Positions 505 through 47,412 of a DNA stretch of 64,000 nucleotides are shown here, piece by piece. The position numbers were made by a program, and so were the translations under genes. How positions within the stretch are numbered: the stretch's first letter is position 1; the number at the start of each line of letters is the position of its first letter. A model generated the notes under the pieces. It was not told the origin of the DNA. It made no database searches and worked only from the letters and a program-made list of their open reading frames with translations. Source of the stretch: Acidobacteriota bacterium. GTDB taxonomy: Bacteria; Acidobacteriota; Blastocatellia; UBA7656. The DNA is taken from NCBI GenBank assembly GCA_038040455.1, contig JBBPIH010000005.1, positions 99,614-163,613 of the forward strand. Reading direction: 5' to 3'.

Positions 505-641
505 AAGATCTTCAAAAGCCTGATCACGTCAGCCTCAACACGCCCGTGAATTATCTCCGCGACGGTCGCTTTGTTATCCCTGATTTCCAACGCGAGTTTG
601 AGTGGAAGCCACGGATTGAACTGGGAGAGGATAATTTATGA
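501..641 (+). pseudogene. 46-aa N-terminal stub of a DUF262 (GmrSD-type) protein
   Basis: My translation (not in the ORF track): MKDLQKPDHVSLNTPVNYLRDGRFVIPDFQREFEWKPRIELGEDNL*. IPDFQREFEW matches the DUF262 PxFQRxxxW motif. ATGA overlaps at both ends. Confidence 0.7.
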
Positions 642-13100: not shown

Positions 13101-14610
13101 AGACAACGGCGACCTCGCAAAGTACAACTTCGAGACTGAGGAAGGCAGAGCAGCGCTCGGTTTGTTATTTCGGTCTATCCTGTCGGGAAAAGCGCTACCT
13201 GGAATCGACAATCCGCGTCAGACGCTCAGAGACATGGGTTTGCTTGTCGAACGAGACGGAGTGGAGACGGTTCGAAAGGAAGATGAATACAATGTTCCTC
13301 GCTTCTTGAATCGAGTGCTCGCCCTGGATGTAGACCGACAGAATGCAATGTTTGATCATTACGCGAAGCTGTTTGACGAGATCGTAAGCTTTGCGAAGGC
13401 GAACGGAACCTTTGACGAAGGAGTCACCGACATCAAAGCGTTGTCAGTTCGTTTAGTCGACTCTAGCGTTGTGCATCGGGAACACTCAACAGGAGCCGAG
13501 ACCACACACTGCACGCTTGAAATCGACCAGCCTACTAAGAAGGTAAGCTTCACCGAGGCAGAAGAAGCGCACACAGGGAAAGGTGGCGCTTTATTCGAGC
13601 ACCTACGTAAAGGCTCATTCATTCTTGCGTTGGAGTCTGGCAGGCATACTGACCCGGCCACAGGTAGCACGTACTCCAACTTTGCGGTGTGGCGGCCAGA
13701 GGGCGCACGCATCAGTTACATTCGAGACGCGCAGCTAACCGAAACCTATCGACCGGTCGTACCAGAGAACGTGGGCGATTGGTGGACGGCAAAGTATGCG
13801 ACGATCCCCGATGTTCAGACCTCGAAGCTACACGTTATCGGCGGAGCGATAACCCCACTCTGGCAAAGCCTTAAGACAACCGAGGCAACCCACTTGCGCG
13901 TTGTAAGACTAACAACCGATGACGGCCAGCGCATTGTAGGAGTTCAGGTACCGAGCGACCACGTAGGAGAAATATTAGGCGCTCTGGGCGTTGCTCGGAC
14001 GTTGCGCGAGACGAATGAGATCTTCAACGCGGTATTAGACGACGGGGAAGAAATCGCGCTCACAGCGGGGCTCACGCTTAAACGCGGAGCCATTCACCGG
14101 GACCCTGTCATCGAGCTATCCGGCGCTCACCCAACTATGTTTGCAACTCTCAGAAAGCTTGGCTTAATAAACGAGCAGATAAGCTGGAAACAAAGATTCT
14201 TCGTCCCGATTGAGGAAGAGCGAGGCAATGCAGTCATAGCGGCTCTATTAGAGCAGTTCCCGGCTATCACGACTGACGATGACGAAAGAAACTGCGACGA
14301 ACGGCCCGACCTTGCTATGCCGTCTGCAAGCACTATGCTGCAGCCAATTGACCTGGAGAACTGGATCGTCGAAACAGCCGAGCCTCAACATAACAATGAC
14401 GCAGAGCAGGAACGCGTAGCAATCACGGAATGCGAAAGTGGCCCGACGAGTGATGAATCCGAACCAAGTTTCACACATCCGAGCCAGAGCGCATGTTTGC
14501 CAATTGCGCGTCAGGCAAGCGCGGCGGGCATGCTCCAGACTCTGCCACCGGACTACCGAACGGCAGCGGTTCAGATCGGTTTCAACTTCGCCGAAAGCGA
14601 GTCCACTTAG
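10110..14610 (+). CDS. Strawberry-notch-family DNA methylase-helicase, split by a frameshift near 11550
   Basis: LEPSAGTG and NPPF (MTase), GDGTGVGKGR (P-loop), DEAH, SATGA, QTFGRTHRS. ORFs 10110..11555 and 11521..14610 join as RRDL-NDLG if one T is removed from GACCTTTAAC. Confidence 0.85.
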
Positions 14611-16115: not shown

Positions 16116-16218
16116 AGTCGACCCAGTTTACAACCAGCTTCAATCCCCAGCAACAGACATTAGGACGGTACCCAAATACAATTCCTTGACCCATCTAATC
16201 ACTTCCGGTATTTTTAGC

Positions 16219-16244
16219 GGCAAATCTTAGGCGCCTCACCGTCT
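16219..16244 (+). promoter_or_regulatory. Putative ECF promoter (variant copy) upstream of the sigma gene
   Basis: GGCAAAT-N11-CACCGTCT, same spacing as the three exact copies. Confidence 0.6.
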
Positions 16245-16510
16245 ATAACTATCGGGGACCTCACCACCCGCGAAGAGAGTAAGAATCGAATATCTCGCTT
16301 GCCCCGCTTGGTGGGATTATTTCGGTCTTTGCCGAGCAAGGGTTCAGTGGGCTCTGTTCATTTTTGGTATGGGACAGTCTGAAGCCATTGCGGTCGTTAA
16401 GTCACTCGCGCTCAATCGGGGCCAGTATACCTTTAGATCGCGAGCTACTTACCCGCTTTAGATCTTGTGCCTGACGGCTATGGGTTTCACGCTTTCGCCT
16501 CTGGGGGTCT

Positions 16511-17602
16511 ATGCCTTCTGACGTAACAGTCAATGACACTCTTCTGCAACCTTTCTTGATGGCGCAGGACTCTGCTGAGTCGCAGCGCCAGCTCTTGATT
16601 CTATTGTCTGAGCACGCGGAGGCGCGCATGAGGGGCATCATATTGGCCCGCCTCCGTTCCTACTTCACCAGTCAAGAGCACGCCGCGGATCCCGAGGATC
16701 TATACAGCGAGGCCAAAACACGATTGCTCACTTACCTGTTTGAGCTGAAGACGGGCCGGAGGACTGCTCCGTGCGAAGACTTTCGGGGGTACGTTGCGGC
16801 GATCGCTCACAATGCGTGCCACGACCACTTCCGCCAGATGTATCCAGCACGCACCCGACTCCACAAGAAGATTCGTGACCTGCTTCAAGCCCATCCGAAT
16901 TTTGCTTTGTGGAAATCTAAAGACCAAAACAAAGGTGAGTGGCTATGTGGGTTTCACTGCTGGCGGGGTCGAAGCAGTTCGTTTACATCAACTGCCTGGC
17001 TACGGCGTTTCTATGAGAACCCAGAGACTGTGATTGAAGCCCTTTCACCTGGTAGTGACATTCAGCTGATGGACATCGACGATCTGTTAGCTTCGATCTT
17101 CAAGGAAGTCGGGGTACCCATCGGCCTAACCGATGTGGTCAATGTCGTGGCTGATATCAGAGGCGTTAAGGACGCGCCGGTTGCGTCATTCGACGCGAAC
17201 GGGGCCAGCTTGAGTTTGCAACTCCCAGATTCAAAGCTTCGCGTCGATTCGGTGCTCGAAATGCGCGAGCCCTTGATGCGAATCTGGCAGGGCTTGCAAG
17301 AGCTACCTCACGATCAGTTGCGAGCCTATTTGCTATATGCACGGGATAGCTCAGGGGAAGACCTGATCAACCTGTGCCTGGCAGCAGAGATCGCAACCGA
17401 GTCGGAGATAGCATTGCACTTGAGGATGGGAATGGACCAGTTTCGAGATCTCCGGTTGAATAGGTTGCCGCTCGACAACGAAGGTATAAGTAAGGAACTA
17501 GGCGTGACCGTCGAACGCGTCTACAAGCTACGTTACCGGGCTGGCAAACGTTTGAAATCGCTTCTGTCTGAAATAATCCCACAAAAGAAATGGCCCATGT
17601 AG
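16511..17602 (+). CDS. ECF-like RNA polymerase sigma factor with long insertion between sigma2 and sigma4
   Basis: Sigma2-like EDLYSEAKTRLL...FRGYVAAIAHNACHDHFR; C-terminal HTH LDNEGISKELGVTVERVYKLRYRAGKRL; 363 aa; followed by an anti-sigma gene. Confidence 0.8.
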   Translation: MPSDVTVNDTLLQPFLMAQDSAESQRQLLILLSEHAEARMRGIILARLRSYFTSQEHAADPEDLYSEAKTRLLTYLFELKTGRRTAPCEDFRGYVAAIAHNACHDHFRQMYPARTRLHKKIRDLLQAHPNFALWKSKDQNKGEWLCGFHCWRGRSSSFTSTAWLRRFYENPETVIEALSPGSDIQLMDIDDLLASIFKEVGVPIGLTDVVNVVADIRGVKDAPVASFDANGASLSLQLPDSKLRVDSVLEMREPLMRIWQGLQELPHDQLRAYLLYARDSSGEDLINLCLAAEIATESEIALHLRMGMDQFRDLRLNRLPLDNEGISKELGVTVERVYKLRYRAGKRLKSLLSEIIPQKKWPM

Positions 17603-17627
17603 GAAGAATTCCTCTCTCTCACCGTCT
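17602..17627 (+). promoter_or_regulatory. Putative ECF promoter upstream of the anti-sigma gene
   Basis: GGAAGAA-TTCCTCTCTCT-CACCGTCT. Confidence 0.7.
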
Positions 17628-17678
17628 CATTATAGAGAACGGTATGTGGTCGTTTGTGACGCGCTTTGACTGGTACGT

Positions 17679-18947
17679 ATGCAGACACACCTGTCAACTG
17701 AAGAGATAAAGAGCTACCTCGGTCGCCGACTGACGCGCGGCGATTTCGATAGAGTAAGTGACCATGTGCATAGTTGTGGGAGCTGCTATGGGGACTTTCT
17801 CGCCGAACTACAAAAGCGGTTTCCTATTGAAATTGATCTGAATGAGCTCGCGGGGCTGCAAGGGTGGCATCTAGGGGACGAAGAGTTGGCGGCGTACGTA
17901 GAAGGCCGAATGGATGAGCTTGACTTTGAATGCGCCAGTCTCCACCTCCAAGAGTGCGGCTCGTGCATGGAGAAGGCATCAGCCGCTTCCGAGTATCCGC
18001 TCGAGTATACGGGCTTGAAACGACGCGCAAGCCGGAGAGAAGCATTGACTTGGAACCGATACATACCCGGCGTCCAGTCAATCTCAACGCCTCGCTTGCA
18101 ACTGGCCGCCGCTGCCGTATTGCTCGTTGCTTTGGCGCTGATCATATTGGCCCTGCTGCAACCGAGGTCTGAGAAACCCCAGCTTGCGGGAAGTCCACCG
18201 CCAGAGACGCGTTCGCCCGATCCCTCTCCCCATCAACCTACGGTGCCGGTTGATCCGGCTCCTCGCGCGGGGTCCGACAACCGTCAGAACGTTGACGAGC
18301 CGATGCCAGGGCAGATGGCTGCCACTGCACATTCGGAAAAGCATCGAGTCGGACGCCGAGAGGATGAGAAAGAGCGAGTGCTGATCGCCAGGGACCTGGT
18401 AATGCCGGCTGCCATCGAGATGCTTGACAGGACGCCGTCGATCGCGGTCCGCGGGAATCCCACCTCCATTCAATCCTTCTCGATCATTCGCCCTTTCACG
18501 ACGGTGATAAAAAATGATCTTCCGATATTCTGCTGGACCGCGTTGAACGGAGCCACAAGTTACACCATCTCGGTTTATGACGCAGATCTCCACCTGGTTA
18601 TCACGAGTGAGCCGCTTACTGAAACTCGGTGGGTGATTCAAGACCGTCTTAAAGCCGGAATGGTTTACACGTGGATGGTGACTGCGCTCAAGGACGGCAA
18701 AGAGATTATCGCGCCTGCGTCGCCCGCTCGTGCGGAGTTCAAGGTCCTTGGAAAGACTGATCGGCGTAAGCTGAATCGCATGGTCAGTGGAACTACATCG
18801 CACGCAGCGCGTGGAGTTCTCTATACAGAAGCCGGATTGCTGGACGAGGCCGAGAAGGAGTTTCAAGCACACTTGGAACTTCGGCCAGCCGACGAACGCG
18901 TAAAACGGTTGCTCCGGATCGTCAGGTCTTGGCGGTTTGTGTCGTGA
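17679..18947 (+). CDS. Transmembrane anti-sigma factor with two zf-HC2 (ZAS) domains
   Basis: HLS...HVHSCGSC and HLG...HLQECGSC; TM helix LAAAAVLLVALALIILALL; Pro-rich linker; beta-rich extracytoplasmic domain; TPR-like C-terminal helices. Confidence 0.8.
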   Translation: MQTHLSTEEIKSYLGRRLTRGDFDRVSDHVHSCGSCYGDFLAELQKRFPIEIDLNELAGLQGWHLGDEELAAYVEGRMDELDFECASLHLQECGSCMEKASAASEYPLEYTGLKRRASRREALTWNRYIPGVQSISTPRLQLAAAAVLLVALALIILALLQPRSEKPQLAGSPPPETRSPDPSPHQPTVPVDPAPRAGSDNRQNVDEPMPGQMAATAHSEKHRVGRREDEKERVLIARDLVMPAAIEMLDRTPSIAVRGNPTSIQSFSIIRPFTTVIKNDLPIFCWTALNGATSYTISVYDADLHLVITSEPLTETRWVIQDRLKAGMVYTWMVTALKDGKEIIAPASPARAEFKVLGKTDRRKLNRMVSGTTSHAARGVLYTEAGLLDEAEKEFQAHLELRPADERVKRLLRIVRSWRFVS

Positions 18948-19194
18948 TTCCTCAAGATCTACCTGCCCTTAGTCTCTCAACGATAATAAACTGTCCTATG
19001 TCGGCTTCGGTAAGAACCTTCCCGCTAGGCTGAAACTCACAACAAGGGCGCTGTTCCCGCAACCAAGCGCAGAGTACCATTGGGAATTGGAGTTCTTATT
19101 CCAACAGGGAGTAGCAGTGGAATCTATCTGGAAAACAGATAGGCATGAGTTAGGCCCACCTGCGATGATGAGACATGCTCAAAGGACATTTGCA

Positions 19195-20556
19195 ATGAAA
19201 CCATATCGAATTCACTTAGCTTTCTTTGCTCTGCTAGTGGCAATTGTGCCAGCGCTTTCGTCACAGGAAAAGACTGTTACCCTAAAGGTTGAAATCGGCC
19301 CGAATGTGCGTGTCAGCGACCGCGGTGCTTCACACGTTGAACCCTATATCGCTGCCCATCCGCAGGACCCGAGAAATCTGATTATTGTGGCTTCACATAA
19401 CGTCGAAGGTAAGGGCATTCTCGCAGAGGCGTTCTTCACGACGGATGCGGGTAAGACCTGGGGCGCCTCCCGCTTGCCTCAACTGCAAGAGGCACTCCTA
19501 GCCAACAAGCTTAAAACGGCTATTGACGATTGGGTAACGTACGCGCCAGATGGTGTGGCATACATCTCGACCTTGGCTGATATGGAGGTTCAAGACCGGC
19601 GGCCAGATCAAATACTTGTCTATCGTTCTGAGGATCAAGGCAAAACCTGGCAAGGTCCGACAGTGATTCCACCCCAAGGTAGCTTTGATCGTCCCTTGAT
19701 GCTTGCGACAGGGACCAAAAACAACAAGCGTATTTATTTGGTAGCCAGTGACCGCGGAGGCTTTGCCGTTTTGAGGTCCGACGATGGCGGGCTTTCCTTT
19801 AAGCCTACCGCGTTTATCGAGCCTGACAATCTTGCTCATCAACCTAAGAATCCACTTCTTTTACCAGATGGGTCACTCCTTGTTCCTTATAATGATTACC
19901 CCTATATCAGTGTCAAGGAGCTTGAGGAGATGCGCCGTGATCCACGGCAACGACGATTGAATTCGTCCAGAATCTATGTCGTGCGGTCACGGGATGGCGG
20001 TCTGACCTTCGACACGCCGCAATTCGTCGCAGACATCCCACGAATGATTCCCGACGGTCTCGAAATGGCCGTCGATCTCTCGAACAGCAGATTCCGGGGT
20101 CGGATCTACGCCGCCTGGAATGGCGAGCGCGGGGATAGCCGCAACATGACAATCGCTTACTCGGCAGATGCCGGCAAGAGATGGTTGAAATCTGCGTTCT
20201 TTCGGGCAGATAACGTGGGTCCTGCCTTTTTCCCCACTTTAGCCGTGTCTCCTGATGGTGCAGTGGGTGTGAGCTGGCTTCAACACGAAAAAGGCGAGGA
20301 GAAATCGCACTGTTACCGGATCTACTTCGCAGCTTCAATTGATGGAGGAGAAACTTTCACACCGCCCCGAGTCGTCTCCGAGACGGTTTCTTGCCCAAGC
20401 AGTGAATCAAATAGAGAAACCATCGATAGATGGTCGCGGGGTGGCGACTATATGGGTCTAGCGGCGGCGGCAGACGGGAGCTTTCACCCGGTGTGGATTG
20501 ATGCTCGTGATGGAGCGTTCCAAGTCTACAGCGCGCGCATCCAGTTGGGAAAATGA
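19195..20556 (+). CDS. Exported BNR/Asp-box repeat (sialidase-like beta-propeller) protein
   Basis: Signal peptide from M at 19195 (AAGGA RBS); six Asp-boxes (TTDAGKTW, SEDQGKTW, SDDGGLSF, SRDGGLTF, SADAGKRW, SIDGGETF). Confidence 0.85.
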   Translation: MKPYRIHLAFFALLVAIVPALSSQEKTVTLKVEIGPNVRVSDRGASHVEPYIAAHPQDPRNLIIVASHNVEGKGILAEAFFTTDAGKTWGASRLPQLQEALLANKLKTAIDDWVTYAPDGVAYISTLADMEVQDRRPDQILVYRSEDQGKTWQGPTVIPPQGSFDRPLMLATGTKNNKRIYLVASDRGGFAVLRSDDGGLSFKPTAFIEPDNLAHQPKNPLLLPDGSLLVPYNDYPYISVKELEEMRRDPRQRRLNSSRIYVVRSRDGGLTFDTPQFVADIPRMIPDGLEMAVDLSNSRFRGRIYAAWNGERGDSRNMTIAYSADAGKRWLKSAFFRADNVGPAFFPTLAVSPDGAVGVSWLQHEKGEEKSHCYRIYFAASIDGGETFTPPRVVSETVSCPSSESNRETIDRWSRGGDYMGLAAAADGSFHPVWIDARDGAFQVYSARIQLGK

Positions 20557-20717
20557 GGGCACTTAGTGTCTAAGATAATGACGAATTCCGCGAGCTTTGA
20601 GATGCTTGAGTCAGATGGACGGAACCTTTAAAGTTCGGTTCTTAGGACGCGCGGCAGTGGTAACATCGCCTGCTACCGAGCCAGTGCCGATTCCACTATG
20701 AGAGGCTCTAACGATCG

Positions 20718-21521
20718 ATGCATCCATCGGAGAATTTGGCCGCAGAATACTCAACCAAGGCAGCAGCGTACGCGCAGCACTGGGTCCCAGTAATTCGTCC
20801 AATGGGCCAGCATCTGCTTCAGGCGTTGCCGCTCGCTTCGGCACGCCAAGTTCTCGACATTGGTACTGGTACTGGAGCACTCCTTCCTGACCTTGGTGCG
20901 GGCGCACCTGATGCGAGCATTGTCGGTATGGATCGCGCCGAGGGAATGCTCCGGATCGCGCAACGCGGCACTAATCACCCATTAGCGGTAATGGATGCAC
21001 AGCGGCTGGCCCTGCGGTCCGAGACAATCGATGTGGCAGTGCTGGTGTTCATGCTTTTCCATTTGCCCGATGTATTGGCGGCACTCAACGAGGTCCACAG
21101 GGTATTGCGCGCAGGCGGGGCGGTGGGGATCGTCACCTGGGGCGAGGACCCGGGCGTGCCGGGTTTGTCGATCTGGATAGAAGAACTCGACGCGCACGGG
21201 GCGGCACCCGACTCTCGGGATCCCAGCGTGATGCAACAAGCTCAGATGGATACGCCGAAGAAACTGTCGGGGCTGCTGCAAGCGGCGGGCTATACCTCGG
21301 TGAGGGTGTGGAACAAGACTTTTCAGCATTGCTGGACAGTGGAGCACCTCTTGGAGTTGCAACTTTGTTGCTGCATGCCTGGTCGGCGCTTGATAAGCTT
21401 GCCGACATCGTTAAGGGCAGCTTGTCGATCACGAGCAGAGGCGCGCCTTGCTCGGCTCACCCCGGAGGAACTTGTGTACGAACCTGAAGTCTTGTTTGCG
21501 GTTGCGCACCGGCTGGCTTAA
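20718..21521 (+). CDS. Class I SAM-dependent methyltransferase
   Basis: [27 protein letters not shown]. Confidence 0.85.
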
Positions 21522-21602
21522 CTCGGTTGTTAGCCTGCGCGAGCATCGGAACGCTCACAGTGGGGCCCCGGTAGTCTCATTTGAGATCGACAGTTTGATA
21601 AT

Positions 21603-24602
21603 CTAAACTCCGCCGTCTCCCACCATGACGAAGCCGGCCCAGTAATAGGGCTTTAATCGGAATTGTGGTTCCTTAATCATCTGGAGAGCCGCCTGCCGAA
21701 GCGCCTCAGCCTTGGGTACTCTCTTCGCGTTTTCGTGAAAGGCAACCACTAGCCTGGCGGTGGTGTTGGATGGAACGGCCCATTGACTTGCTACAGTCGC
21801 AGGGACGCCAGCCACGAACAGCGCCCAGGTCATCCCTATCATCCCTTCGCCGGCACCAACCCGGCCCCTTGCGGTATCACAAGCCGAGAGCACGGCTAGT
21901 TCAGCCTTGAGGTCCATCTCCATCAACTCCCAGGCTTCAAGAAGCCCGTCCTCCTTTGAGTCGATGCTCGGTGCAAGAACGATGTACGAATAAAGCGGAT
22001 TCTGATTATCCAATACTCCGTGAGTTGCGAAGTGAAGCACTCTGTATCTACCTATCTCCGACTTTACAATCTCTTCCCGAGCAGCCGCACCAATGCGAAC
22101 TACAGTTGCCTGCGACCCGTACACTTCAGACGCAAGAGTCTCCACCTCTTTCTCCGTTTCTGGGAGCGGAACAAAAGGCGTATTCCGCAGTGTCTGCGCG
22201 CGTGCCAGCGCTTCGCCACCCAACGCGGGATTCGCAACAGCGTACAGCTGCGGTGTTTGAGCTTTCGATAACGAGGAATTGCCGTTCTGTTCGCTCTTGC
22301 TCAGAGGCAGTGATCGCAAGCTATCAGACCTTTTCCTCATTTCGCGAAGAACTTGAAGGGACGGAGCATAGTATATCGCGTACAGCTCCAACAGGTACTG
22401 ATCTCTGGCGTTCTGTAGCGCCTGGAAAGGAAGATTCCAGAGCGTATCATCAGGAACAATGCATACCGTATTCTTGTTGTTTAGAAACGGCTCCGCTGGT
22501 TTGATTAATAGATCATAAAGATCGAGACCGGTCTGCCTGAAGCCTGGATGATTCGTTGACAGTAGGTTCCGAAACCTCTCCACCAGAGCGGACAACGCGC
22601 TTTTCTTAATATCCATAGAGCAGACGCCGACGTTTACTTTGGCCCGAGTTGTTGAATCCCTAGTCAATACAAACAAAAATGTTCTTTCGTCTGTTACCAC
22701 GTATTCCAGAACTGTCGTCCGGGTATCTGATAGAAGCTCGCTCGCATCTTCTATAGTAAACGCGGGGAAGAGACCCCGTTTAGCTTTCAACTCCGGGTGT
22801 ACTGCGTACAGAGCTGCTTGCAATGCTTCATATGCGTTGCGGGCCTTTTGTAATCGATTCGCGAGTTCTTCTATTCGCGTTTCGTCTGGCAGCTGACGCA
22901 TCCTCTCGCCGCGAACCTGAGCATTGAGAGAAACCATTTCGCTGTACAGTTTCCGCTCTTCCGACTGCTCTCTTTGACTCAGCGACTTGTTAACGTCTAT
23001 CCGACCGTTACGGAAGACATCCAGCAACACACGTCCCTTCGCCCGCTCAGCGTACTTAAGGGCCTCTTCTGCTTTGCCTTGCTGGATGAGCATCGATACC
23101 ATTTCGAGGTAAGGAGAGATTCTATTCTCAAAGAAGAGTTGTTGCTCTTTCTCCGCACCTGCAATTTGATCTCGCATATGCTCAACTGCTTCGATTCCCT
23201 GTACGAAAGATTCGGACGCAAGCCCCTCTTCCTTTTGCGCGCGATAAGCCTTACCTTTGAGCGTTAGAGCTAAGTAATTCAGTAGGGGCGAGCGAAGTTG
23301 TCTTGCCAGGTCAGCCGCGCTACTAGCCGCAGCGCTTGATCCAGCGTAGTCACCTTGTGAATAGAACACCTGCCCTTTGCGCCAAAGAAGTTCCGTTATG
23401 CGAATCTTGTCCCCGACTGTTTGAGCGAGCGACAATGCCTTATCAAACCAAGCCGACGCTCTCGCATAATTGGCCTGCGCCTGGTACACGGACCCCAACC
23501 CCTCCTGGGCAGCGATGATTATTTCAACGGCGTCGATCTCCTCGGCCCTCTTAAGACTATCCTGAAATTCCTTTGAAGCGACTACGTACTTTCCTTGTCT
23601 GTAGTTTATTACCCCGATGTTCAAGAGGTTCCTTGCGATCTCTCGCCTATTGTTAGCCTGCATGTAGATTTTCAGACTTTGATTCACGAATTCAGAAGCC
23701 TTCAAATAATCGCCCTGTTCGATATATAAGACAGCCAGGTCGTTAAGCACGGCCGCCGTTCTGCCCTTATCGATCAATGTCTTTGCTGTATCCATTGCTT
23801 GAGACAAATAGTTTAGCGCCTGGAGATGATCACCCTTGACCTGGTACACATGACCGATCTCCGTCAAAGCATCCGCTAGGTTGCCGGCAGACCAGAAGCC
23901 GCGCTGCAGCAGTTGCTTCCACAAAGCAAGCGACCTTTTGAGATTATCAAGCGCACCGTCGTAATCGCCTTTCCACTTGGCTACCTGGCCAAGATTCGAC
24001 CACGCAATCGCAACCCCATATTCGTCGGGCAATGCACCGGCAGGCTCATTAATATTCTTTAGTGACGTCGCGCGAGCAATACTCTCCAATGAGTATTGCT
24101 CAGCCTTCAGGTAATCCGCCGCGTAAATGTGGAGCGTTCCCAGTTCACTCAGAACATAGATAAGGTCTCTGCGTGAACCAACTTCTTCGAATGCTGCTTT
24201 GCTTTGGAGGTATTCTTCTATCGCTAGTTTGATGTTGTCCTGCTCAAAATGAATGCGTCCAACCTTGTAAAGGACACGTGCGAGAACCTTCTTATCCTGT
24301 AGCTGTGCCGCCGTTGCCTTTCCGACTTCACAAAGGAACATCAATCTGGCTCTATCGCTTAGAGAGGAGGGCATAATCGCCGCCTGCAGCAAGGAATCGC
24401 AAAGTCGCGGCGTCACAAGCTCCTTGTTACCTCGCAATAACGATGAAGCCGTGAATTCATCACCTGTCTTCATCGACAGCAGCGCTGCAAGCAATTCGTC
24501 TTCGGTCCTGACCGTCTGAGTGCTCGTTGATTGAGAAAATGAGGCAATAGGTAGAAGAACAAGAAGGACAACACAAAGAAGTCGAACGGGCCTGGATAAC
24601 AT
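21603..24602 (-). CDS. Exported TPR-CHAT (caspase-like) cysteine protease
   Basis: Likely start at 24602 gives signal peptide MLSRPVRLLCVVLLVLLPIASFSQ. About 10 TPRs, AERAKGRVLLD, IVPDDTLWNLPF, HFATHG (His), LSACDT (Cys), PYYWAGF. Confidence 0.9.
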   Translation of the reverse strand: MLSRPVRLLCVVLLVLLPIASFSQSTSTQTVRTEDELLAALLSMKTGDEFTASSLLRGNKELVTPRLCDSLLQAAIMPSSLSDRARLMFLCEVGKATAAQLQDKKVLARVLYKVGRIHFEQDNIKLAIEEYLQSKAAFEEVGSRRDLIYVLSELGTLHIYAADYLKAEQYSLESIARATSLKNINEPAGALPDEYGVAIAWSNLGQVAKWKGDYDGALDNLKRSLALWKQLLQRGFWSAGNLADALTEIGHVYQVKGDHLQALNYLSQAMDTAKTLIDKGRTAAVLNDLAVLYIEQGDYLKASEFVNQSLKIYMQANNRREIARNLLNIGVINYRQGKYVVASKEFQDSLKRAEEIDAVEIIIAAQEGLGSVYQAQANYARASAWFDKALSLAQTVGDKIRITELLWRKGQVFYSQGDYAGSSAAASSAADLARQLRSPLLNYLALTLKGKAYRAQKEEGLASESFVQGIEAVEHMRDQIAGAEKEQQLFFENRISPYLEMVSMLIQQGKAEEALKYAERAKGRVLLDVFRNGRIDVNKSLSQREQSEERKLYSEMVSLNAQVRGERMRQLPDETRIEELANRLQKARNAYEALQAALYAVHPELKAKRGLFPAFTIEDASELLSDTRTTVLEYVVTDERTFLFVLTRDSTTRAKVNVGVCSMDIKKSALSALVERFRNLLSTNHPGFRQTGLDLYDLLIKPAEPFLNNKNTVCIVPDDTLWNLPFQALQNARDQYLLELYAIYYAPSLQVLREMRKRSDSLRSLPLSKSEQNGNSSLSKAQTPQLYAVANPALGGEALARAQTLRNTPFVPLPETEKEVETLASEVYGSQATVVRIGAAAREEIVKSEIGRYRVLHFATHGVLDNQNPLYSYIVLAPSIDSKEDGLLEAWELMEMDLKAELAVLSACDTARGRVGAGEGMIGMTWALFVAGVPATVASQWAVPSNTTARLVVAFHENAKRVPKAEALRQAALQMIKEPQFRLKPYYWAGFVMVGDGGV

Positions 24603-24705
24603 GGTTGGTTTGCCCGGAAAGAAATCAGACTTGAGTGAACGGTAAGGGGAAAGCAATGCTCTCCCCTCACCGAAGACAGTCATATTGTCTCGCACCCTGG
24701 TGCGC

Positions 24706-24900
24706 TCACCACAATTTACGTAGCGCGGCGGCTACGAGGGCCGCTAACTGTGCGAGTGTGAGGGATGCGCTTCCACTTGATTGTGAGTTAGAGGTATTCT
24801 GCGGCCCGCCATTCTCGGCACGAACGGCTGTCGGCTGGAAGAAAAGCCCAACTGTCAAAATGATAGCCAGGCTCAGCAGGATGGATCTGACTTTCTTCAT
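24706..24900 (-). CDS. Small secreted peptide (64 aa) upstream of the CHAT protease
   Basis: AAGGAG RBS; signal peptide ending AVRA; predicted 36-aa mature ENGGPQNTSNSQSSGSASLTLAQLAALVAAALRKLW. Confidence 0.75.
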   Translation of the reverse strand: MKKVRSILLSLAIILTVGLFFQPTAVRAENGGPQNTSNSQSSGSASLTLAQLAALVAAALRKLW

Positions 24901-25154
24901 GGCATCTCCTTAAGTGATCGGGATTTCAACACCGCTTGATAACGGCTTTCACATCGTGAGGCGACGTTGGTCAATCTGGCTTTTGCTGATGCGTCAGCTA
25001 ATAAATGAAGGCGGCGTTGCAAGGGTCTATTGTTCTTGAGGGGCTAGTGACTTTGAATAGATCCCTTACCCAACAACCGCATACTCAAATTGTAAAAACA
25101 ACCAGTTCATAGGGCTTCCGGTGTAGCTACTGGATCGGTACAAACTTCCACTGT

Positions 25155-27110
25155 TTACGGAGCCTGTTTCAGCAAATGCTCCTGTACAAATTGCGCGATC
25201 GCGTAGAGTCTGAAATCCCGGTTCGGTTTCTTGCTCCAGTCATGACCTTCATCTTTTGCTAAGAGGTACCAGATTGGAGCTCCATTCTTCTTTGCGGCCG
25301 CGACCATTTGCTGGCCTTCCGTAGCCGGAACCCGCGGATCGTTCTTTCCTTGAATAATGAAAAGGGGCTTCTTGATTTTGTCGGCTCTATTTGCCGGTGC
25401 GGTTCGCTCTAAGAACTCTCGAATCTTTGGATCGCGCTCGTCTCCGAACTCCACCCGCTGCAAATCTCGCCTCCAACCTGCAGTGTTCTCAATAAAGGTC
25501 ACGAGATTCGATGGTCCCGAATCCGATATGGCGGCACGAATACGTTCGCTGTAGTTCGTCGCCACTGAAAGCGCCATGTAACCGCCATAGCTGGCGCCTT
25601 GGACCATGACTCGATCAGCGTCGAGATCGCCTTGCGTCTTAATCCAATCGAACAGAGCACCGATATCTTTCCAGGCGTTCATTCGGAGCACGCCGTTGTC
25701 GAGTTTATGAAAGCTCTTGCCGTAGCCCAACGAGCCGCGCACGTTTGGAAAAATGAGAACTATTCCAAGCTCATTCAGGAAATAGTTGTTGTGATATCCG
25801 AACTCCGGTCGATACTGTTCTTCGGGACCTCCGTGAATATTGATAATAACGGGTCGCTTGCCAGTGAAGGTCGCAGGCGGTCGATAGAGGAAGCCAGATA
25901 TCATCTTGCCATCGAAGCTTTTCCAACTGATCTGCCGTGGTTCGGGCAGCTTGTCCAAATCGATTCCACCAGTTACACCCTTGTACCAGTGGTCGAGGTT
26001 ACCGGTATTCGTGTCAACTGAGTACACATCATTTGGAGTACGCCGCGATCTGAAATTGAAAGCCAGGTCAACTGAGTTAGTGTGCCATTGGAGATCCGCG
26101 ATGACGCCTGCCGGCAAAGCGGGAGCGACTTTCTCCTTGCCAGTCTTCGTGTCAAGGATATGAAGTCGAGAAGCGCCATCCTGGTTAGTGACAAACGCTA
26201 AGGTTTTCCCATCTGGCGAGAGTCTCAACTCCTCGACATCCCACCTGATGTGATCCGAAAGATACTTGTACTGCTTTGTTGTAAGGTCCAGATATGCGAG
26301 ACGCCGAAAATCTGAATCACGGTCCGTAACGACGTAGACCCCACTACCATCTTTGCTGAATTGCGGATAGTCGTAATACTCGTCCGGTTTTCCCTTCTTT
26401 GGACTCAGAAGAGTCTTCTCTCCAGTTGACACATCGATTATCCAAAGAGCGCTTACTGTGTTTGAAGCAAAGTCACAAAAGACAGCCCTATGGTCATCGG
26501 CTGACCAGTCATAGGCTTTCAAGTAGTTACCTTTGCCCGCCGCCAGCAAGCGCACCGTTTTCGGATCTAGCGGGTTGATAACAGACAGGTCCACGCCATT
26601 CCCATTTGGCGGCGACGAGCTAAAGATTATTCTGTCACCTCGATTGGACCAGACCGGCTCGGTATTTCTCGACTTCCCATCTGTGATCAACGTGCTTTTG
26701 CGCGTCGAGATGTCAAAAAGATAAAACTGAAAGAAATCGTTGCCATCAGTGTGTTTGTTATAGACAAGGTATTTCGACTGCGGTTGGTAGTACACATCGT
26801 ACACACCTGTGGGAACAAACATTGAAATACCCGGGGCGCTCCCTGGTGCTGCTGTCCGCAGAATCCATGTTTCGCTCGCCGCAAGGTTCTTGAGCAACAC
26901 TTCGCGCTTAGTCTCATCCCAACCTGCGAGCCGAAATCCGTAAGCGTTTGTATAGCGGTTAACCGTTTGAGCTAGAGAGGCCGATATCTTCGGAATGCCT
27001 TCTGCGATGAGATTATCTCCTGGAACAATCTCGGCATTGTTGGCGTTTTGCCCCAGGACGCAATTCCCTGCAAGCGCCAGGACCGCCAGGATTGTAGTAA
27101 GCCTCTTCAT
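25155..27110 (-). CDS. Exported S9-family peptidase (prolyl oligopeptidase/acylaminoacyl peptidase)
   Basis: Signal peptide; beta-propeller repeats; IHGGP, PNVRGS, GASYGG (Ser), NDPRV (Asp), EGH (His). Confidence 0.92.
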   Translation of the reverse strand: MKRLTTILAVLALAGNCVLGQNANNAEIVPGDNLIAEGIPKISASLAQTVNRYTNAYGFRLAGWDETKREVLLKNLAASETWILRTAAPGSAPGISMFVPTGVYDVYYQPQSKYLVYNKHTDGNDFFQFYLFDISTRKSTLITDGKSRNTEPVWSNRGDRIIFSSSPPNGNGVDLSVINPLDPKTVRLLAAGKGNYLKAYDWSADDHRAVFCDFASNTVSALWIIDVSTGEKTLLSPKKGKPDEYYDYPQFSKDGSGVYVVTDRDSDFRRLAYLDLTTKQYKYLSDHIRWDVEELRLSPDGKTLAFVTNQDGASRLHILDTKTGKEKVAPALPAGVIADLQWHTNSVDLAFNFRSRRTPNDVYSVDTNTGNLDHWYKGVTGGIDLDKLPEPRQISWKSFDGKMISGFLYRPPATFTGKRPVIINIHGGPEEQYRPEFGYHNNYFLNELGIVLIFPNVRGSLGYGKSFHKLDNGVLRMNAWKDIGALFDWIKTQGDLDADRVMVQGASYGGYMALSVATNYSERIRAAISDSGPSNLVTFIENTAGWRRDLQRVEFGDERDPKIREFLERTAPANRADKIKKPLFIIQGKNDPRVPATEGQQMVAAAKKNGAPIWYLLAKDEGHDWSKKPNRDFRLYAIAQFVQEHLLKQAP

Positions 27111-27162
27111 GTGACTATTAAGCTATCAGGTTCTCCCGAGAGTCGTCGTTTACGTGTATTAA

Positions 27163-27188
27163 AGACGGTGACGATCGCGAGTTCTTCC
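27163..27188 (-). promoter_or_regulatory. Putative ECF promoter upstream of the S9 peptidase
   Basis: Minus strand GGAAGAA-CTCGCGATCGT-CACCGTCT, 52 bp before the ATG. Confidence 0.7.
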
Positions 27189-27413
27189 ACCCGTAATAAG
27201 ATTTTTTCGCGATGCAGCATAACTGTCAACTCTGCGACTTATATACGTCAGCAATGGGACCTCTCTCATCGCCCCTGCTAGATACCCCTAGAGTGAGGGC
27301 TATGCAGGCTTATTGCTGATGTCCCGGCATCTATCGTCGGCGACAACAGCCAACACCGAACATAAGAGTCCGACCAGAACGGCTCATCTAAAATCGCGAT
27401 CACAAGGGCTGAC

Positions 27414-27439
27414 GGAAGAATCGCTTGTCGCCACCGTCT
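27414..27439 (+). promoter_or_regulatory. Putative ECF promoter, divergent from the S9 promoter
   Basis: GGAAGAA-TCGCTTGTCGC-CACCGTCT. Confidence 0.7.
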
Positions 27440-27609: not shown

Positions 27610-27846
27610 ATGCGCAAGCGCACCGAGACCACACATAAAGCAACACGAACAATCACCATGCCTGATGAGGTTGACCTGACCACCTATAACTCGCTCGATG
27701 TTTCCTTTATGGATGGCAAGGGAAACGAGATCCTGAACCTTCAATTTCGCCGCGATGCGGACACGTTGCCCCAGTTGGCTATCAACGTAATCGGTCCGAA
27801 TGGCGACGTGATTAGCGCCCTCACTTTATTCGATCTGGAAGTATGA
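27610..27846 (+). CDS. Small hypothetical protein (78 aa)
   Basis: AGGAGG RBS 7 nt before the ATG; downstream of the promoter motif at 27414. Confidence 0.55.
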   Translation: MRKRTETTHKATRTITMPDEVDLTTYNSLDVSFMDGKGNEILNLQFRRDADTLPQLAINVIGPNGDVISALTLFDLEV

Positions 27847-28061: not shown

Positions 28062-31000
28062 TCAATGAAGCGACGTATCAAGCATAAACGCAGCGACCCT
28101 TATGTCTCCCACCGATAAATCTACTGCTTGTTCGCTATACCTTTGTTGAGCTTTTTCCATGGTGATTCTTGGAGCGACCTGTTTCCGATAGTCACTACCG
28201 TCCCATTGATCGCAATTAAACCAGCCCACAAGGTAGAGACCATGTTTGCACTTGTTATCCTGAAGGTAACGATCAACCAGTTGAGTCTTCATCGAATCAT
28301 CGAGATCTCGATTCCAGCAACCTTTTGTCTCTATTATCACGGTAGCAACGCCAAACGGCTCTTCCTGCATGTTGCCTGAAAGAGTGACCGCATTGACGTG
28401 AATGTCGGTTCGCTCCCCGCGATGGATTCTTACCTCTCTATTGATGACTATGCCCCTTTCGGTGAGGTCACGCTCCAATTCTCTTTTTACATAATCAGCC
28501 AAATGGTTCTCATCCTTGGGCCGAGAGACTCGTCTCCGATGTATGCGTCCAACCTCTGATCGCATCGGCTTATCAGAACTGTTGCCGCCGTCCGGCAAGT
28601 CGTTCCATAGGTCGCTAACAGCAGGGGTCTCTCCTTGAAGTCTTGTCTGCAGCCGAGTTAGCGATTCAATCACGACATCCAAGAGTTGCTGCGAGTTCTG
28701 AACGAGCCGATTATCGGTGTTACTAACTAGATTCAAAATGTATTCGGGTGATACGGGCATCCAAGTCTGCCGTCGCGCTGTATCCCAAGCTTCGCGTAGC
28801 TGCCACTTCATCCAGTCTAGCTCCGGGCAAGCATGTGCGATTCGCTGCATTCCGTGGCACGCCTCCAAAGTACCTCTCTGACGCAACTCAACCAGCACTG
28901 CGTCTCGAAGGGAACCGAGTCCACCAATTACCTCGCCAAAGAAACCATAGGAAGAGCTGGAAGGAGAGTATGGGTAGCGTCGCACGAGCCAGAGATATAG
29001 ATCGACTAATTCGTCGACGGCTAATTCGTGGAGCAGCCGCTTCGCCCTTCGGTCATTATTAGTGATGCGGCCGATGACCTCATCCCCGAACGATGGATCC
29101 GATTGCATTTGCTTCCAGACTACTCGTCGCCCGTGAATTTCACCGTGCACAGCTAGCGTGATGCCGATGACTATACCTCGCTCTCTTTCATCGTCAATCT
29201 TCGGCACTGACGAAACCGTCAACCAATTGAGATCTTGTTCTGGTGTTTCCAGCTCTATAGTGGGTCTCGCCTCAAGCGTGGCGATGATCTCCTCCGCGAA
29301 AGCCCGAGCCGACAAGCTATCGTGATCAAGAAGGTGCGCAAGTATATGGCTTGTCGTCGTAGGCTTGAGATGCTGCTCCTTAAGCTTAACGGTTAGTGAG
29401 TCGGCCAACCTTTGACTCCAACAGCACTCCACGCGACGCAACGGACAATGGTTGTGGTCCAACGCAAAGCTCGTCGCATCGATTACCACTGACTCAGACA
29501 CTTGATTTGCCAGCTTAACTAGCTTCTGATTCAATTCCCATCCATCATCTCTCAGGGGAAATAGGAGAATGACAGGTAGCCACTCTCTCCACCGGTCAGC
29601 GCCAAGCTTTGCCAGTTCTGTCGGAGACTCTTTCAGCAACAACACAAGAGCCTTGTAACCCGCCCAGGAGTCGAGAAAGATGAGCGAATCGCCTGCGATC
29701 CACCGACTCGTATCATCGCCGCAATAATGCAGGTAATCATGAGCGATTGCTATCAATCGTTGCTTCGTAGCGCCGTCCGCAGCTTTCCACCCTGGTAATT
29801 GAGTTATGTCGGCCTGATACTCGTCGCCCCAATGAACGCTAGTCGGCTCAAGGGCTAGTAACCGGCAGATCTGCCACCATCTAACAGGTTGCCCCGACTC
29901 GCAAATGTCTAAAAGAGTCAGAATCTGCTCGTGAGGTGGAGGACTGAGTACTGGTGGATTCCTTTCCTGCTGCTCAACTGTCAATTGGTGGGTATACTCC
30001 TCCCGCATGCTCCGTGCTACTTCCGAATCTAATTGAATTGGGCCGAAAAACCACCGTAATTCAACAGCCAAAGCTTTGCTCTCTTGTATCGCTCGATACA
30101 TAGTGTCAACGTGATCCGGGTCGCGCCAATCGAATACTCTGCTAAGCATACGGGCAAGAGTCGTATGTAGTATACCGGTTGCAGTTTGCAGCTTTTCTGC
30201 CATCCAGTGCAGATCCAATTGGGACAAGAAGGTGTTCTTGGACGTGGCCAGCCAGCGAAAATCCGTATTTTCATCCGTTACTGAGTTCAATAGAGCGTCC
30301 AACACTAGTCGCCGTCTTTCTTGATTTTCAAGCACGTGTTCACTCATCGACCGCCGACCAGGCCCAAACAGTCCGCGAAACGAATTATTGTCGTCGACGA
30401 TGTCGTCGAAGAATACAAGCCTGGAACGAACAGCCCGCGCGAATGATTCGATCAAGCCAGGAAGCTCTAAATTCCTCCAACCCTTAAGCATGATCTCATC
30501 AATCAAATTGCAGCAGTCGTATGACAGGTCTCGGCGGGGTTGTTGAGACTCAACCCACCGCAACGCGACGGGCAGATCGATGGGCTTCAACTTTTTCACG
30601 AGCTCATATCGAAGGAAGTATTCATAGCTGCCGCTGTAGGATTCACGGTGCACAGGCGCGAGGACTTCAAATAACGCCTGCGCACTCGGGCTATCGGGCC
30701 AGATTGCTTGAAGCGCGTAGCCCTTCAAATCCTGGTCGGGGTCCTCAGAAATATCGGCCTCAATCAGCGGCTCCAATCTTCTTTTAGTTTCGTTGTCTCC
30801 AATACGAAGCACAGCAGACGCCGCGTTAACGCGAATGCCATATGAATCAGCCCGATCAAGCGCAATATCGGCTAATTCGTTCTGAAGTTCTTTGACATCG
30901 CAGGCTTCAGCAATATCAGCAGCCGCTCGCCGACAGATTATTCCTCGCTCTTTATCTTCGAGGTACGGCAGCAGCTGGCACGCCAAACCATCGTACTTAA

Positions 31001-32385
31001 GTTTCCGGTATTGGGTCCTAATTGCAAAAGTATCGAGCAGCTGTTCTGCTTCGTATAGATTGAGAAGAGTACCTACCAAAGCCTCTCGGTCTGCGAGATC
31101 CGCAGACGCAACGTCACTCCGCAACAGAACGTCAGCCTCGACATCCATTATTCCTTGAAATAGCTTGTTCGACATTCCCCCGAGCCACGCTGCCGTCTCA
31201 TGGAGTTGGGGAATCAGCTTGCCATTAGGATCATTCGGGTGACGGAGAAGGCCAAGGATCTGGGACACTTGGATTCCGTGCTCGACGAGGTACCGCGCTG
31301 CTAAAAACTCAGCATACGTCTGATGTGCCCAGCCCATGCGGTCAGGACCTCGTGCCGAAAATAATCCAGTTGCCAGCGTTTCTCTTATCGCAGCCTCGGT
31401 ACACTCGAAGCGCATCCCTCCGGCGGCCTCCACGCCGCCACACAGTTGCTGCGCGTGCATATCGTCGGGCACGCCGCCCAGGTCGACGTCGGTCCAAACG
31501 GCATACTGGTTCGAAAAGATCATTAACGCTGCAATCCGACTAGCAACCGCGAGGCGCTGATCGCCCGTCAATGAGGTTACGCGCCTATCTTCTCGCCTTC
31601 GTTTGTCCGGCTCTTCGCACAGCCGCCGACAACCCTGCTGGTATAACTCTCTCTGAGTATTTGGGAAGCCGCCGTTCTCGTGGAAGATGTCTAGAAGAAA
31701 GCGAACGGTGATGGGCTTGACAGCTAACGGAACCACGCCGGAGCGGTCGATCTCGTCGAGGAAACGCGCTGAGTCAAGGTGATGATCTATAGCTGCCAGC
31801 TCAACATCTCGCTTCCGCAAAGGAAGGAGTTCATATACTCCAACCGCGTCTTCGCCCCAAAGCTTCCTGAAGCTATCCTCTAGGCTAGTCGGCCACTCTG
31901 CCGTTCGACACGCGATCCGAAGTCTGAGCCGATCAGTAAGGGCACTTCTGCAGCCTTTCGTCTAGGATGGAGGAAAGCGTTTCGATTCGCATCCGGGCTT
32001 CGTCAAAGCTATCGAGAAACAGATAGAGATTGTGGGTCCCTTCGAGCCAAGTAAGGAATTCAGGAGCCTCGAACACTTCACGAATTAGTCTGCTCTCTTC
32101 CCCGTAACTCCGAAGATCCTTGTGGAACAGAACTCCATCGACGGCAGCCGCTTCGATTGCTGCTTCTTCCAGTGCCGATTTCATTGTGAAGCTCTTTCCT
32201 AGTCCGGGCTCTCCCAGAAGCACCAGGCACTTCTTGGCGGAAATTGACTCGAAGATCAGTGCATTCTTGTTAAACAGGCGTTCGTACTCCGAGTCGGGAT
32301 CGGTCAAGTATCCTCCGTCAGACACGTGGAACGTGCCTCCCCTTTCGCACCAGAAACGCTTCCAATTGTGGGTTACTACTGCCAT
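28062..32385 (-). CDS. NACHT/STAND NTPase with helical repeats and C-terminal PD-(D/E)xK nuclease; frameshift near 31935
   Basis: LLGEPGLGKS (Walker A), LFLDSFDEA (Walker B). Removing one base in TGCCCTTACT joins the ORFs as CP-TDRLRLRIACRTAEW...LLPLRKRD. WAHQTYAEFLAA; C-terminal REVRI...RTDIHV...IIETKG. Confidence 0.8.
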
Positions 32386-34693: not shown

Positions 34694-34805
34694 CTTCGTA
34701 GAAAACCGTAGTAAACGGTCGAAATTGACTGCAATCCGGCTGGCTACAAATCGCAGTAGATAGAACGTTTTAGGGTTAGATAGAAAAGTAAGGACGAGCA
34801 TTGCG

Positions 34806-34849
34806 TGGGGTTATGAATCCCACGCTCTAACCACCTGAGCTACGCCGCC
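34806..34849 (-). tRNA. 5' half of tRNA-Met(CAT), truncated after the anticodon stem (att-site fragment)
   Basis: GGCGGCG-TA-GCTC-AGGTGGTTA-GAGC-G-TGGGA-TTCATAA-CCCCA, then non-tRNA sequence with no T-arm or acceptor 3' strand. Confidence 0.85.
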
Positions 34850-45244: not shown

Positions 45245-45498
45245 AGATCAATGTTCAAATCGAGCGATTGATTTTGGACGGGTTGCCCATGGAGCGCCAT
45301 CACGGTCCGCTGCTGAAAGCTGCCGTGGAGGCGGAATTGGGCCGTCTCCTCGCGGCCGATGGATTGGCAGACAGTTTGATGTCGGGTGGCGCGATGCCTT
45401 CAATGCGTGCTCCCGGTATTCGCCTGCCGAGTGACAGCAACCCGACCCGACTGGGTCAACAGATCGGCCGCGCGGTCTATGGAGGCATCGGCCGATGA
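45241..45498 (+). CDS. Small eCIS-associated protein
   Basis: INVQIERLILDGL...LGQQIGRAVYG; overlaps both neighbours. Confidence 0.75.
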   Translation: MKINVQIERLILDGLPMERHHGPLLKAAVEAELGRLLAADGLADSLMSGGAMPSMRAPGIRLPSDSNPTRLGQQIGRAVYGGIGR

Positions 45499-47339: not shown

Positions 47340-47412
47340 CACTGTGTGGCCTGCCATCGGCCTTTTAGTGTGAACTTTCTTGACTCGATCACGGTCGCAA
47401 CAGAGTGATTTT

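Follow-up and report, generated by a model that had tools for sequence, protein, structure and literature searches.

Do the copies of a short two-block sequence that lie around a sigma factor gene mark the promoters which that same sigma factor reads? The question is raised by a 64,000-nucleotide stretch of contig JBBPIH010000005.1 from an Acidobacteriota bacterium, which was analysed over its whole length and is called the window below. The window encodes, side by side, a sigma-70-family protein that resembles sigma factors of the extracytoplasmic function (ECF) kind and a membrane anti-sigma factor, together with exported proteases. An initial annotation made from the sequence had proposed that copies of the motif GGAAGAA-N11-CACCGTCT define the regulon of this sigma factor. 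Four sites in the window carry the signal:

17602-17627, forward strand: consensus site before the anti-sigma gene, GGAAGAA-N11-CACCGTCT, with CGTCT 51 nt from the ATG.
27163-27188, reverse strand: consensus site before the S9 peptidase gene, GGAAGAA-N11-CACCGTCT, 52 nt from the ATG.
27414-27439, forward strand: consensus site before a gene for a 78-aa protein, GGAAGAA-N11-CACCGTCT, 170 nt from the ATG and divergent from the S9 site.
16219-16244, forward strand: variant site before the sigma gene, GGCAAAT-N11-CACCGTCT, three mismatches, 266 nt from the ATG.

These four sites are quite probably ECF-type promoters, recognised by RNA polymerase together with the product of the sigma gene at 16511-17602. 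The reading is carried by an excess of sites over chance, their syntenic conservation, the families of the genes involved, the fixed geometry of the two blocks and the adjacency of the sigma and anti-sigma genes, all of which were observed directly; the promoter identity and the recognition by the adjacent sigma factor are what we infer from them. Judged from sequence, the regulon signal is real and of ECF type, and it belongs to an ECF-like sigma family that is unclassified and has some variant features.

The three exact copies were confirmed at their annotated positions, and the exact consensus has three matches in the window and none in any of 100 dinucleotide-preserving shuffles. Relaxing the first block to GGHARAH-N11-CACCGTCT returned the same four sites and none besides, with no match at all in 100 shuffles, and the variant GGCAAAT-N11-CACCGTCT at 16219-16244 on the forward strand is likewise present as it had been described. 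The still looser GGHARA-N15-CGTCT again found only these four sites in 64 kb (shuffle mean 0.20; 0 of 100 shuffles reach four). When scored with a weight matrix derived from 14 sites of six orthologous loci (L001-L006) alone, the four window sites reached 24.8-32.0 bits, the highest value belonging to the S9 site (32.0 bits) and the sigma-gene site scoring 26.1 bits. The next-best position in the window, antisense within a gene, scored 17.1 bits, and the maximum over 200 second-order Markov simulations of the window was 22.6. The spacers of the four sites differ in sequence and are uniformly 11 nt long, as the annotation had claimed. All four sites are intergenic and oriented into genes, which also agrees with it save for one base: the first G of the copy at 17602 is the last base of the sigma stop codon.

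Three further candidates were rejected. The near-matches at 9035-9060 and 44722-44747, both on the reverse strand, lie within open reading frames (ORFs), and the second is antisense and, at 17.1 bits, inside the simulated null range. A weaker copy had been annotated at 24962-24987 on the reverse strand, before the genes for a small peptide and a CHAT protease. The sequence AGCAAAA-N11-CAACGTCG is present there as described; its membership is not supported, since at -4.7 bits and rank 141 of 127,926 positions it is no better than chance, and alignment of the stretch before the peptide gene shows neither block retained in L003, L005 and L006.

Orthologous loci were collected through the sigma protein. 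A word-indexed protein search identified 94 close relatives in metagenomes and in metagenome-assembled genomes (MAGs) of Blastocatellia and Acidobacteriota; 26 were aligned, and this 26-member alignment led to 15 loci from the genome collection. Sigma identity to the window protein is 50-79% for L001-L006 and 26-32% for L007-L013. Several loci are labelled Clostridia or Heliobacteriaceae and have genes resembling those of Blastocatellia, and these labels look doubtful. The six closer loci, all from Acidobacteriota MAGs, retain the module of sigma, anti-sigma, convergent TPR-CHAT gene, small ORF and S9 gene, and a scan of such homologous loci, suggested with the annotation as a check, showed the signal kept at the same places in all six. 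Using the pattern GG[ACT]A[AG]A-N14-16-CGTCT on both strands of the window and L001-L006 (171,421 bp), 22 matches were obtained. All 22 lie 45-266 nt upstream of a same-strand module gene and none lies elsewhere in the 171 kb, which supports the proposed sigma-regulon promoters within the window and six loci chosen for their sigma gene. The spacing is identical in 21 of the 22; the exception is the L002 site before the 78-aa gene, whose spacer is 1 nt longer.

The sites recur before particular genes. The motif precedes the anti-sigma gene in 7/7 loci (45-51 nt from the start), the S9 gene in all five loci in which the S9 5' region is covered (52-56 nt from the start), the 78-aa gene in the three loci that encode it and the sigma gene in four of seven (window, L001, L002 and L005). 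It is also found before a divergent sigma-54 activator gene in all three loci that have one beside sigma (L003 9583-9608, L004 8148-8173 and L006 9571-9596, each on the reverse strand), which suggests a cascade from this sigma factor to sigma-54 in those three genomes. The window has a sigma-54 activator gene of its own at 35561-36970, which was rejected as an orthologue of the motif-bearing activators: identity is 38% over the generic ATPase core only, and there is no site upstream. Spacers and flanks are not conserved, with an information content of about 0-0.4 bits against the maximum in both blocks. In L005, whose sigma protein is 50% identical to that of the window, GGAAGAA is kept and the first bases of the second block vary (GACCGTCT, GGCCGTCT, CGCCGTCT), so the constant core is GGAAGAA-N13-CCGTCT.

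The geometry of the sites resembles that of known ECF promoters. Written as GGAAG-N16-CGTCT, the motif has the same geometry as ECF promoters of the GGAAC-N16-CGTT type. An A-tract lies 12-22 nt upstream of the first block, the putative -35 element, in most sites before anti-sigma, S9 and 78-aa genes (about 14 nt at the window S9 site), and resembles an UP element. The hallmarks listed for ECF systems in the available part of one survey (PMC8103513) are CGT in the -10 element, AAC in the -35 element and a sigma2-sigma4 linker of fewer than 50 residues. All four window sites and the 18 in the other loci contain CCGTCT, and with it the CGT; the patterns that found them required CGTCT. The annotation had called the blocks typical ECF-type -35 and -10 elements of a GGAA/CGTC kind; the spacing and the CGT of the -10 element fit this description and the missing AAC of the -35 element does not.

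The third position of the -35 element differs between gene classes. It is A in 15/15 sites before anti-sigma, S9 and 78-aa genes (GGAAGAA, GGAAGAT, GGAAAAA, GGAAAAC) and C or T in 7/7 sites before regulator genes, namely GGCAAAT or GGCAAAC before sigma genes and GGCAAAA, GGCAGAA or GGTAGAA before activator genes. The sigma-gene variant GGCAAAT or GGCAAAC also stands upstream of sigma in L001, L002 and L005. We take the split between gene classes as graded promoter strength; it could also reflect two readers.

A related signal was found in some of the seven distant loci. The relaxed form GGAA-N3-N13-NCGTNT has nine matches in L007-L013 where 3.1 were expected, and three of the nine agree in a longer signature, GAGTGGAAT[TA]T-N13-NCGT[CT]T, which keeps the spacing and follows an A/T tract. 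In L008 and L009 this GAGTGGAAT signature precedes sigma, and in L010 it precedes the gene row that includes CHAT; the -10 element in these three loci is CGTCT or CGTTT. Their sigma proteins (28-31% identical) also differ from the window sigma in the last helix, which fits a co-variation of the -35 element with sigma4 in the distant relatives, seen at three sites only. A TPR-CHAT gene adjoins the sigma/anti-sigma pair in L007, L010, L011 and partly L012, and no S9 gene was found at these four loci. At L010 1707-1732 (forward strand) this signal of the distant group lies upstream of a DDE transposase ORF with a CHAT gene directly after it, and an insertion sequence may have landed between a promoter-like site and its gene.

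The proposed reader of these sites and its presumed inhibitor are encoded next to each other:

16511-17602, forward strand: sigma-70-family, ECF-like sigma factor, 363 aa, TIGR02937 above cutoff, sigma2 at about residues 45-115.
17679-18947, forward strand: membrane anti-sigma factor, 422 aa, two tandem HxxxCxxC motifs, a single transmembrane helix and then about 260 aa in the periplasm with a TPR-like end.

Assignment of the first protein to the sigma-70 family is based on TIGR02937, the NCBIfam model of the sigma-70/ECF superfamily, which it matches at 44.4 bits against a cutoff of 42.9, residues 45-351 being matched to a model of 165 positions. The Pfam model Sigma70_r2 scores the window protein below its cutoff (17.5 versus 24) and is matched by 20 of the 26 aligned family members, and a profile comparison (hhalign) with two canonical ECF sigma factors (L014, L015) aligned sigma2 with a probability of 95-96% and E of about 4e-9. 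Homologues share the N-terminus that begins with the ATG at 16511. Sigma2 ends at about residue 115 and the first sigma4-like match begins at about residue 255, which leaves about 140 unassigned residues in between, and the C-terminus has an extra helix-turn-helix-like segment. We read the protein as a divergent, non-canonical member of the sigma-70 family that would work like an ECF sigma factor.

The family to which it belongs is large. A profile search of 1.84 billion representatives of 50% identity clusters returned 2,715 proteins with E<=0.001, of which 1,357 reach E<=1e-30; the best 150 of the 2,715 matches are mostly 340-380 aa long and match almost the whole profile, and a length near 350-370 aa is typical of the family. 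Few family members have precomputed Pfam domains, and their source names are "sigma-70 family" or hypothetical; the protein-atlas clusters matching the window sigma are named "hypothetical protein" and come from Acidobacteriota. No description of the family or the motif was found in the literature, with the reservation that an entry for the group may exist in the full ECF group tables or the ECF Hub. The group descriptions in the available part of the PMC7826278 supplement contain neither GGAAGA nor CCGTC.

The anti-sigma gene follows the sigma gene after a gap of 76 nt in which no terminator-like site was found, and the pairing is kept in 7/7 close loci and in distant loci. Residues H4, H29, C33 and C36 of its product, and again H64, H89, C93 and C96, are invariant in 26 sequences, and a hydrophobic helix follows the zinc-finger motifs at about residues 141-162. 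The zf-HC2 model is above cutoff in the orthologue of L003 (26.4 versus 22.2) and in 5/5 distant loci; it gave no match for the window protein itself at E up to 5, and the RsrA model matched that protein weakly (E 5.8e-5). Solved structures gave no significant match to the anti-sigma factor, and its periplasmic part had only protein-atlas leads below 0.9 with a named family (DUF928, MtxA Ig-like). The usual zinc-associated anti-sigma (ZAS) proteins carry one zinc-finger unit. The second unit found here might bind the extra part of the sigma factor or another partner. The 422-aa protein has no CHAT domain; that domain lies in a separate 1030-aa ORF on the opposite strand (the homologue search covered proteins of 232-739 aa).

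Several results weigh against the proposed reading of the sites. On the side of the protein, the Pfam model Sigma70_r4_2 matches 8 of 26 family members, in two pieces at about residues 255-280 and 321-348, and all of these matches are below cutoff. The hhalign comparison gave no match for residues 110-250 and a probability of only 1-10% for the C-terminus, although the last helix-turn-helix does line up by eye. The window sigma has no significant sequence match among solved sigma structures (best FliA, E 0.32), and the ECF linker length of fewer than 50 residues is exceeded because about 140 residues separate sigma2 from the sigma4-like part. On the side of the DNA, the -35 element is A-rich and has AAC in only 2/22 sites (GGCAAAC in L005 and GGAAAAC in L002). 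In L003, L004 and L006 the sigma gene has no motif before it and the variant faces the divergent activator gene, so self-activation of sigma is not universal (3/7 loci lack a site upstream of the gene). The 18 sites used for information content and the 14 used for the matrix were anchored on CACCGTCT, with the -35 block, spacing, orientation and position left free, and the invariance of the CACCGTCT block is therefore partly by construction. All comparison loci were selected for carrying the sigma gene, and the regulon reading rests on the window and those loci. L001 and L002, finally, are two contigs of one MAG, each with a full module and the same motif, which means that more than one sigma copy has the signal; cross-talk between paralogous modules of one promoter specificity is possible in that organism.

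This last observation bears directly on one alternative, in which the sites are still ECF-type promoters and are recognised by a sigma factor from another part of the genome, for example a paralogue, with the adjacent sigma gene merely one of the targets. The MAG with both L001 and L002 shows that paralogues of the same specificity exist, and the division at position 3 of the -35 element, 7/7 C or T against 15/15 A, could reflect two readers. We nevertheless regard a reader encoded elsewhere as unlikely: the motif accompanies this particular sigma gene in 7/7 loci and is found nowhere else in 171 kb, the -35 element changes together with the C-terminal helix of sigma in the distant relatives, and a Pfam scan of 41 window ORFs revealed no second sigma gene.

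It is quite improbable that an ordinary DNA-binding regulator, whether repressor or activator, binds the two blocks and that the real promoters lie elsewhere. Two of the sites do have sigma-70-type hexamers shortly before them (16186-16214 and 27229-27201), as such an arrangement would have it; these hexamers are not enriched in the window (10 found against 8.2 in shuffles). The blocks are moreover asymmetric and face a gene in 22/22 cases, their distance from the start codons of the anti-sigma and S9 genes is held tightly at 45-56 nt, and the spacing and the CGT block suit recognition by a sigma factor better than by a dimeric regulator. That the copies are remnants of a repeated or mobile element, or chance, is hardly credible even in a region that looks island-like (restriction-modification genes, a NACHT-like gene, a contractile injection system and a degraded tRNA-like fragment), given that only two short blocks are common to copies with different spacers and flanks, that the chance expectation is 0 and that the sites are conserved in synteny in genomes whose proteins are only 50-79% identical.

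If the four sites are promoters of the adjacent sigma factor, the following scheme can be proposed. GGAAGAA would be the -35 element, contacted by the sigma4-like C-terminus, and CCGTCT (usually CACCGTCT) the -10 element, contacted by sigma2, with transcription starting a few bases downstream within an A/T-rich stretch. In the resting state the sigma factor would be held by the adjacent membrane anti-sigma factor. Once released, it would transcribe its own gene through the weaker -35 variant GGCAAAT, giving positive feedback, and the gene may also have a basal sigma-70-type promoter at 16186-16214. The anti-sigma gene, with a full-consensus promoter of its own and read-through from the sigma gene, would provide fast negative feedback. 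The S9 peptidase, the 64-aa peptide and the TPR-CHAT protease would be made together, probably from one transcript, and the divergent 78-aa gene would form a fourth transcribed unit. More speculatively, the exported TPR-CHAT protease, the S9 peptidase or both may cut the periplasmic part of the anti-sigma factor and so release the sigma factor, by analogy with the DdvA and Craspase systems considered below.

The putative targets other than the regulators themselves are as follows:

25155-27110, reverse strand: exported S9 prolyl-oligopeptidase-family peptidase, 651 aa, Pfam Peptidase_S9 E 9e-35, signal peptide in the translation.
24706-24900, reverse strand: gene for an exported 64-aa peptide between the S9 and CHAT genes, an ORF with signal peptide conserved in L003, L005 and L006.
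21603-24695, reverse strand: exported TPR-CHAT (caspase-like) protease, 1030 aa, Pfam CHAT E 3.5e-71 and TPR repeats.
27610-27846, forward strand: conserved cytoplasmic 78-aa protein, from a family of 38 proteins, nearly all 78 aa long, with a mean column identity of 78%.

The TPR-CHAT protein has a signal-peptide-like N-terminus and both the His and Cys motifs (FATHG and SACD). The order S9, small ORF, CHAT is retained in all six other loci as far as they are covered, and no terminator-like site was found on the reverse strand between the S9 and CHAT genes. The peptide and CHAT genes are more likely transcribed from the S9 promoter, at the far end of the S9 message. Before the peptide gene, at about 24915-24975 on the reverse strand, a block CCTCAC..GTG..AGCCGTTATC is partly conserved with L003 and L006; its layout departs from that of the motif, and it may represent an internal promoter or an RNA element. 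The 78-aa protein has no match in Pfam, NCBIfam or PADLOC. PADLOC also returned no match for the sigma factor, anti-sigma factor, S9 peptidase or peptide and only generic TPR matches for the CHAT protein, and membership of a known defence system was rejected in the absence of a specific match. Between the anti-sigma and CHAT genes the window alone has genes for a BNR-repeat protein and an S-adenosylmethionine-dependent methyltransferase (19087-21521, forward strand), which may be read through from the anti-sigma promoter; the same interval holds a Gp49/helix-turn-helix pair in L001 and nothing in L002, L004 and L005.

The usual case in the ECF classification, as the available part of PMC7826278 presents it, is a sigma/anti-sigma module that regulates itself through a promoter specific to its group. 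For a sigma factor to have a shared promoter motif close to its own gene is in itself textbook behaviour, and the case here comes from an unstudied protein family of soil Acidobacteria. Compared with ECF modules, group 4 in particular, as the available parts of the surveys describe them (Staron 2009, Casas-Pastor 2021; PMC7826278, PMC8103513), the window has the same succession of a sigma gene and a gene for a membrane anti-sigma factor with HxxxCxxC, a -35/-10 pair before sigma and neighbouring targets, CGT in the -10 element and the GGAAC-N16-CGT geometry. It differs in that the proteins of the window sigma family are about 360 aa long with an insert of about 140 residues, against a linker of fewer than 50 in the portion of PMC8103513 on ECF hallmarks. 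It is further set apart by the -35 element without AAC, the tandem zinc fingers, the promoter-like site of the anti-sigma gene itself and the split, exported CHAT partner.

Closer in its parts is the DdvS-DdvA system of Myxococcus xanthus, which, in the available portions of PMC11506125 and PMC6061681, shares with the window an ECF-type sigma factor, a transmembrane zinc-binding anti-sigma factor with a periplasmic TPR-CHAT link, several promoters in its own neighbourhood and an island with defence genes. In DdvA the TPR-CHAT part is fused to the anti-sigma factor and its active site is described as incomplete (PMC11506125, in part), whereas here the protease is separate and exported and has its His and Cys motifs. 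The fused form is found only in Myxococcota and one Comamonas according to the same available part of PMC11506125. Unlike DdvS-DdvA, the window has an S9 peptidase and a 64-aa peptide accompanying CHAT, and no motif-bearing genes of a cyclic-oligonucleotide-based antiphage signalling system (CBASS) or of CRISPR.

The type III-E CRISPR Craspase (Csx29 TPR-CHAT, Csx30, CASP-sigma) likewise couples a protease to an ECF-like sigma factor, since Csx29 cleaves Csx30, an inhibitor of that sigma factor, and its sigma factor has motif copies in its own locus, as set out in the available part of PMC10028731. Craspase is cytoplasmic and RNA-guided and its inhibitor is not of ZAS type (PMC10028731, same part); here the CHAT protein has a signal peptide and there are no CRISPR genes. 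A further parallel is ECF54 of Actinobacteria, for which the available part of the PMC7826278 supplement gives TPR-CHAT proteins and exported serine peptidases as conserved neighbours. ECF54 has no obvious anti-sigma factor, a predicted GTATCAG / CTCC promoter and subtilases in that description (PMC7826278), as against an anti-sigma factor, GGAAGAA / CCGTCT and an S9 peptidase in Acidobacteriota here.

From these comparisons a broader hypothesis can be drawn up, which we advance tentatively and consider rather doubtful as yet: a large sigma family, not placed here in any described ECF group, may work as a split DdvA-like device, in which separate exported proteases (TPR-CHAT, here with S9 and a small peptide), produced under the sigma factor's own promoter, release it from a tandem-zinc-finger anti-sigma factor, in a self-contained loop with class-graded promoters. 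The promoter assignment itself would give a precise specificity, and a minimal regulon of four transcription units, to a sigma family that is abundant in metagenomes and named at most generically. After DdvA and Craspase, the locus would also add a third, independent case in which TPR-CHAT proteases are genetically tied to ECF-like sigma control, with parts that are here separate and exported, and it makes the cleavage of anti-sigma factors by CHAT proteases a question testable in a simpler system. Promoter, sigma factor and anti-sigma factor together, with their very clean signal, may find use as an orthogonal switch for expression.

The leader of the sigma gene contains two further features:

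16186-16214, forward strand: sigma-70-type promoter-like site TTGACC-17-TATTTT just upstream of the ECF-type site, a candidate basal promoter.
16256-16269, forward strand: conserved 14-nt box GGACCTCACCACCC (RRACCTCACYNCCY), found once in the window against 0.02 expected.

TTGACC and TATTTT are both conserved in L001 and L002, and TATTTT in L003, L004 and L006; the site is kept as a lead only because, as noted above, such sites are not enriched over shuffles. The 14-nt box occurs once per locus in L001 (5296-5309), L002 (2154-2167), L003 (9703-9716), L005 (9845-9858) and L006 (9691-9704), with a variant in L004, and resembles CCTCACCGTCT of the -10 region of the sigma gene. An RNA element in the sigma leader was rejected, as neither an Rfam match nor a conserved fold was found there.

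The surroundings of the sigma module look like a defence or mobile island. The start of the window (1-7376, forward strand) encodes type I restriction-modification functions, with a second, partial methylase at the window edge, a fused HsdM-HsdS and HsdR. A Strawberry-notch-like helicase at 10110-14610 (forward strand) is split into the overlapping ORFs 10110-11555 and 11521-14610, which divide AAA_34 at profile position 109/110; the split is a frameshift or a sequencing error. The same Strawberry-notch-like helicase gene lies directly upstream of sigma in L005. On the other side of the module, 28062-31820 (reverse strand) encodes a 1252-aa NACHT-like protein with partial similarity, far below cutoff, to the antiphage proteins EruA and HyoA. 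A degraded tRNA-like fragment at 34789-34849 (reverse strand) has a CAU anticodon arm and has lost most of its T arm (22.2 bits against a gathering score of 29), and ARAGORN found no tRNA in the window. Lying between the NACHT region and the injection-system cluster, the fragment may be what is left of an old integration site. That cluster (37513-64000, forward strand) comprises extracellular contractile injection system genes for sheath, tube, baseplate, Pvc16_N, AAA ATPase and spike proteins, with four tandem eCIS_core-domain proteins at 45495-52767, and is preceded by the sigma-54 activator gene at 35561-36970. At the cluster the GC content rises from about 0.51 to about 0.59.

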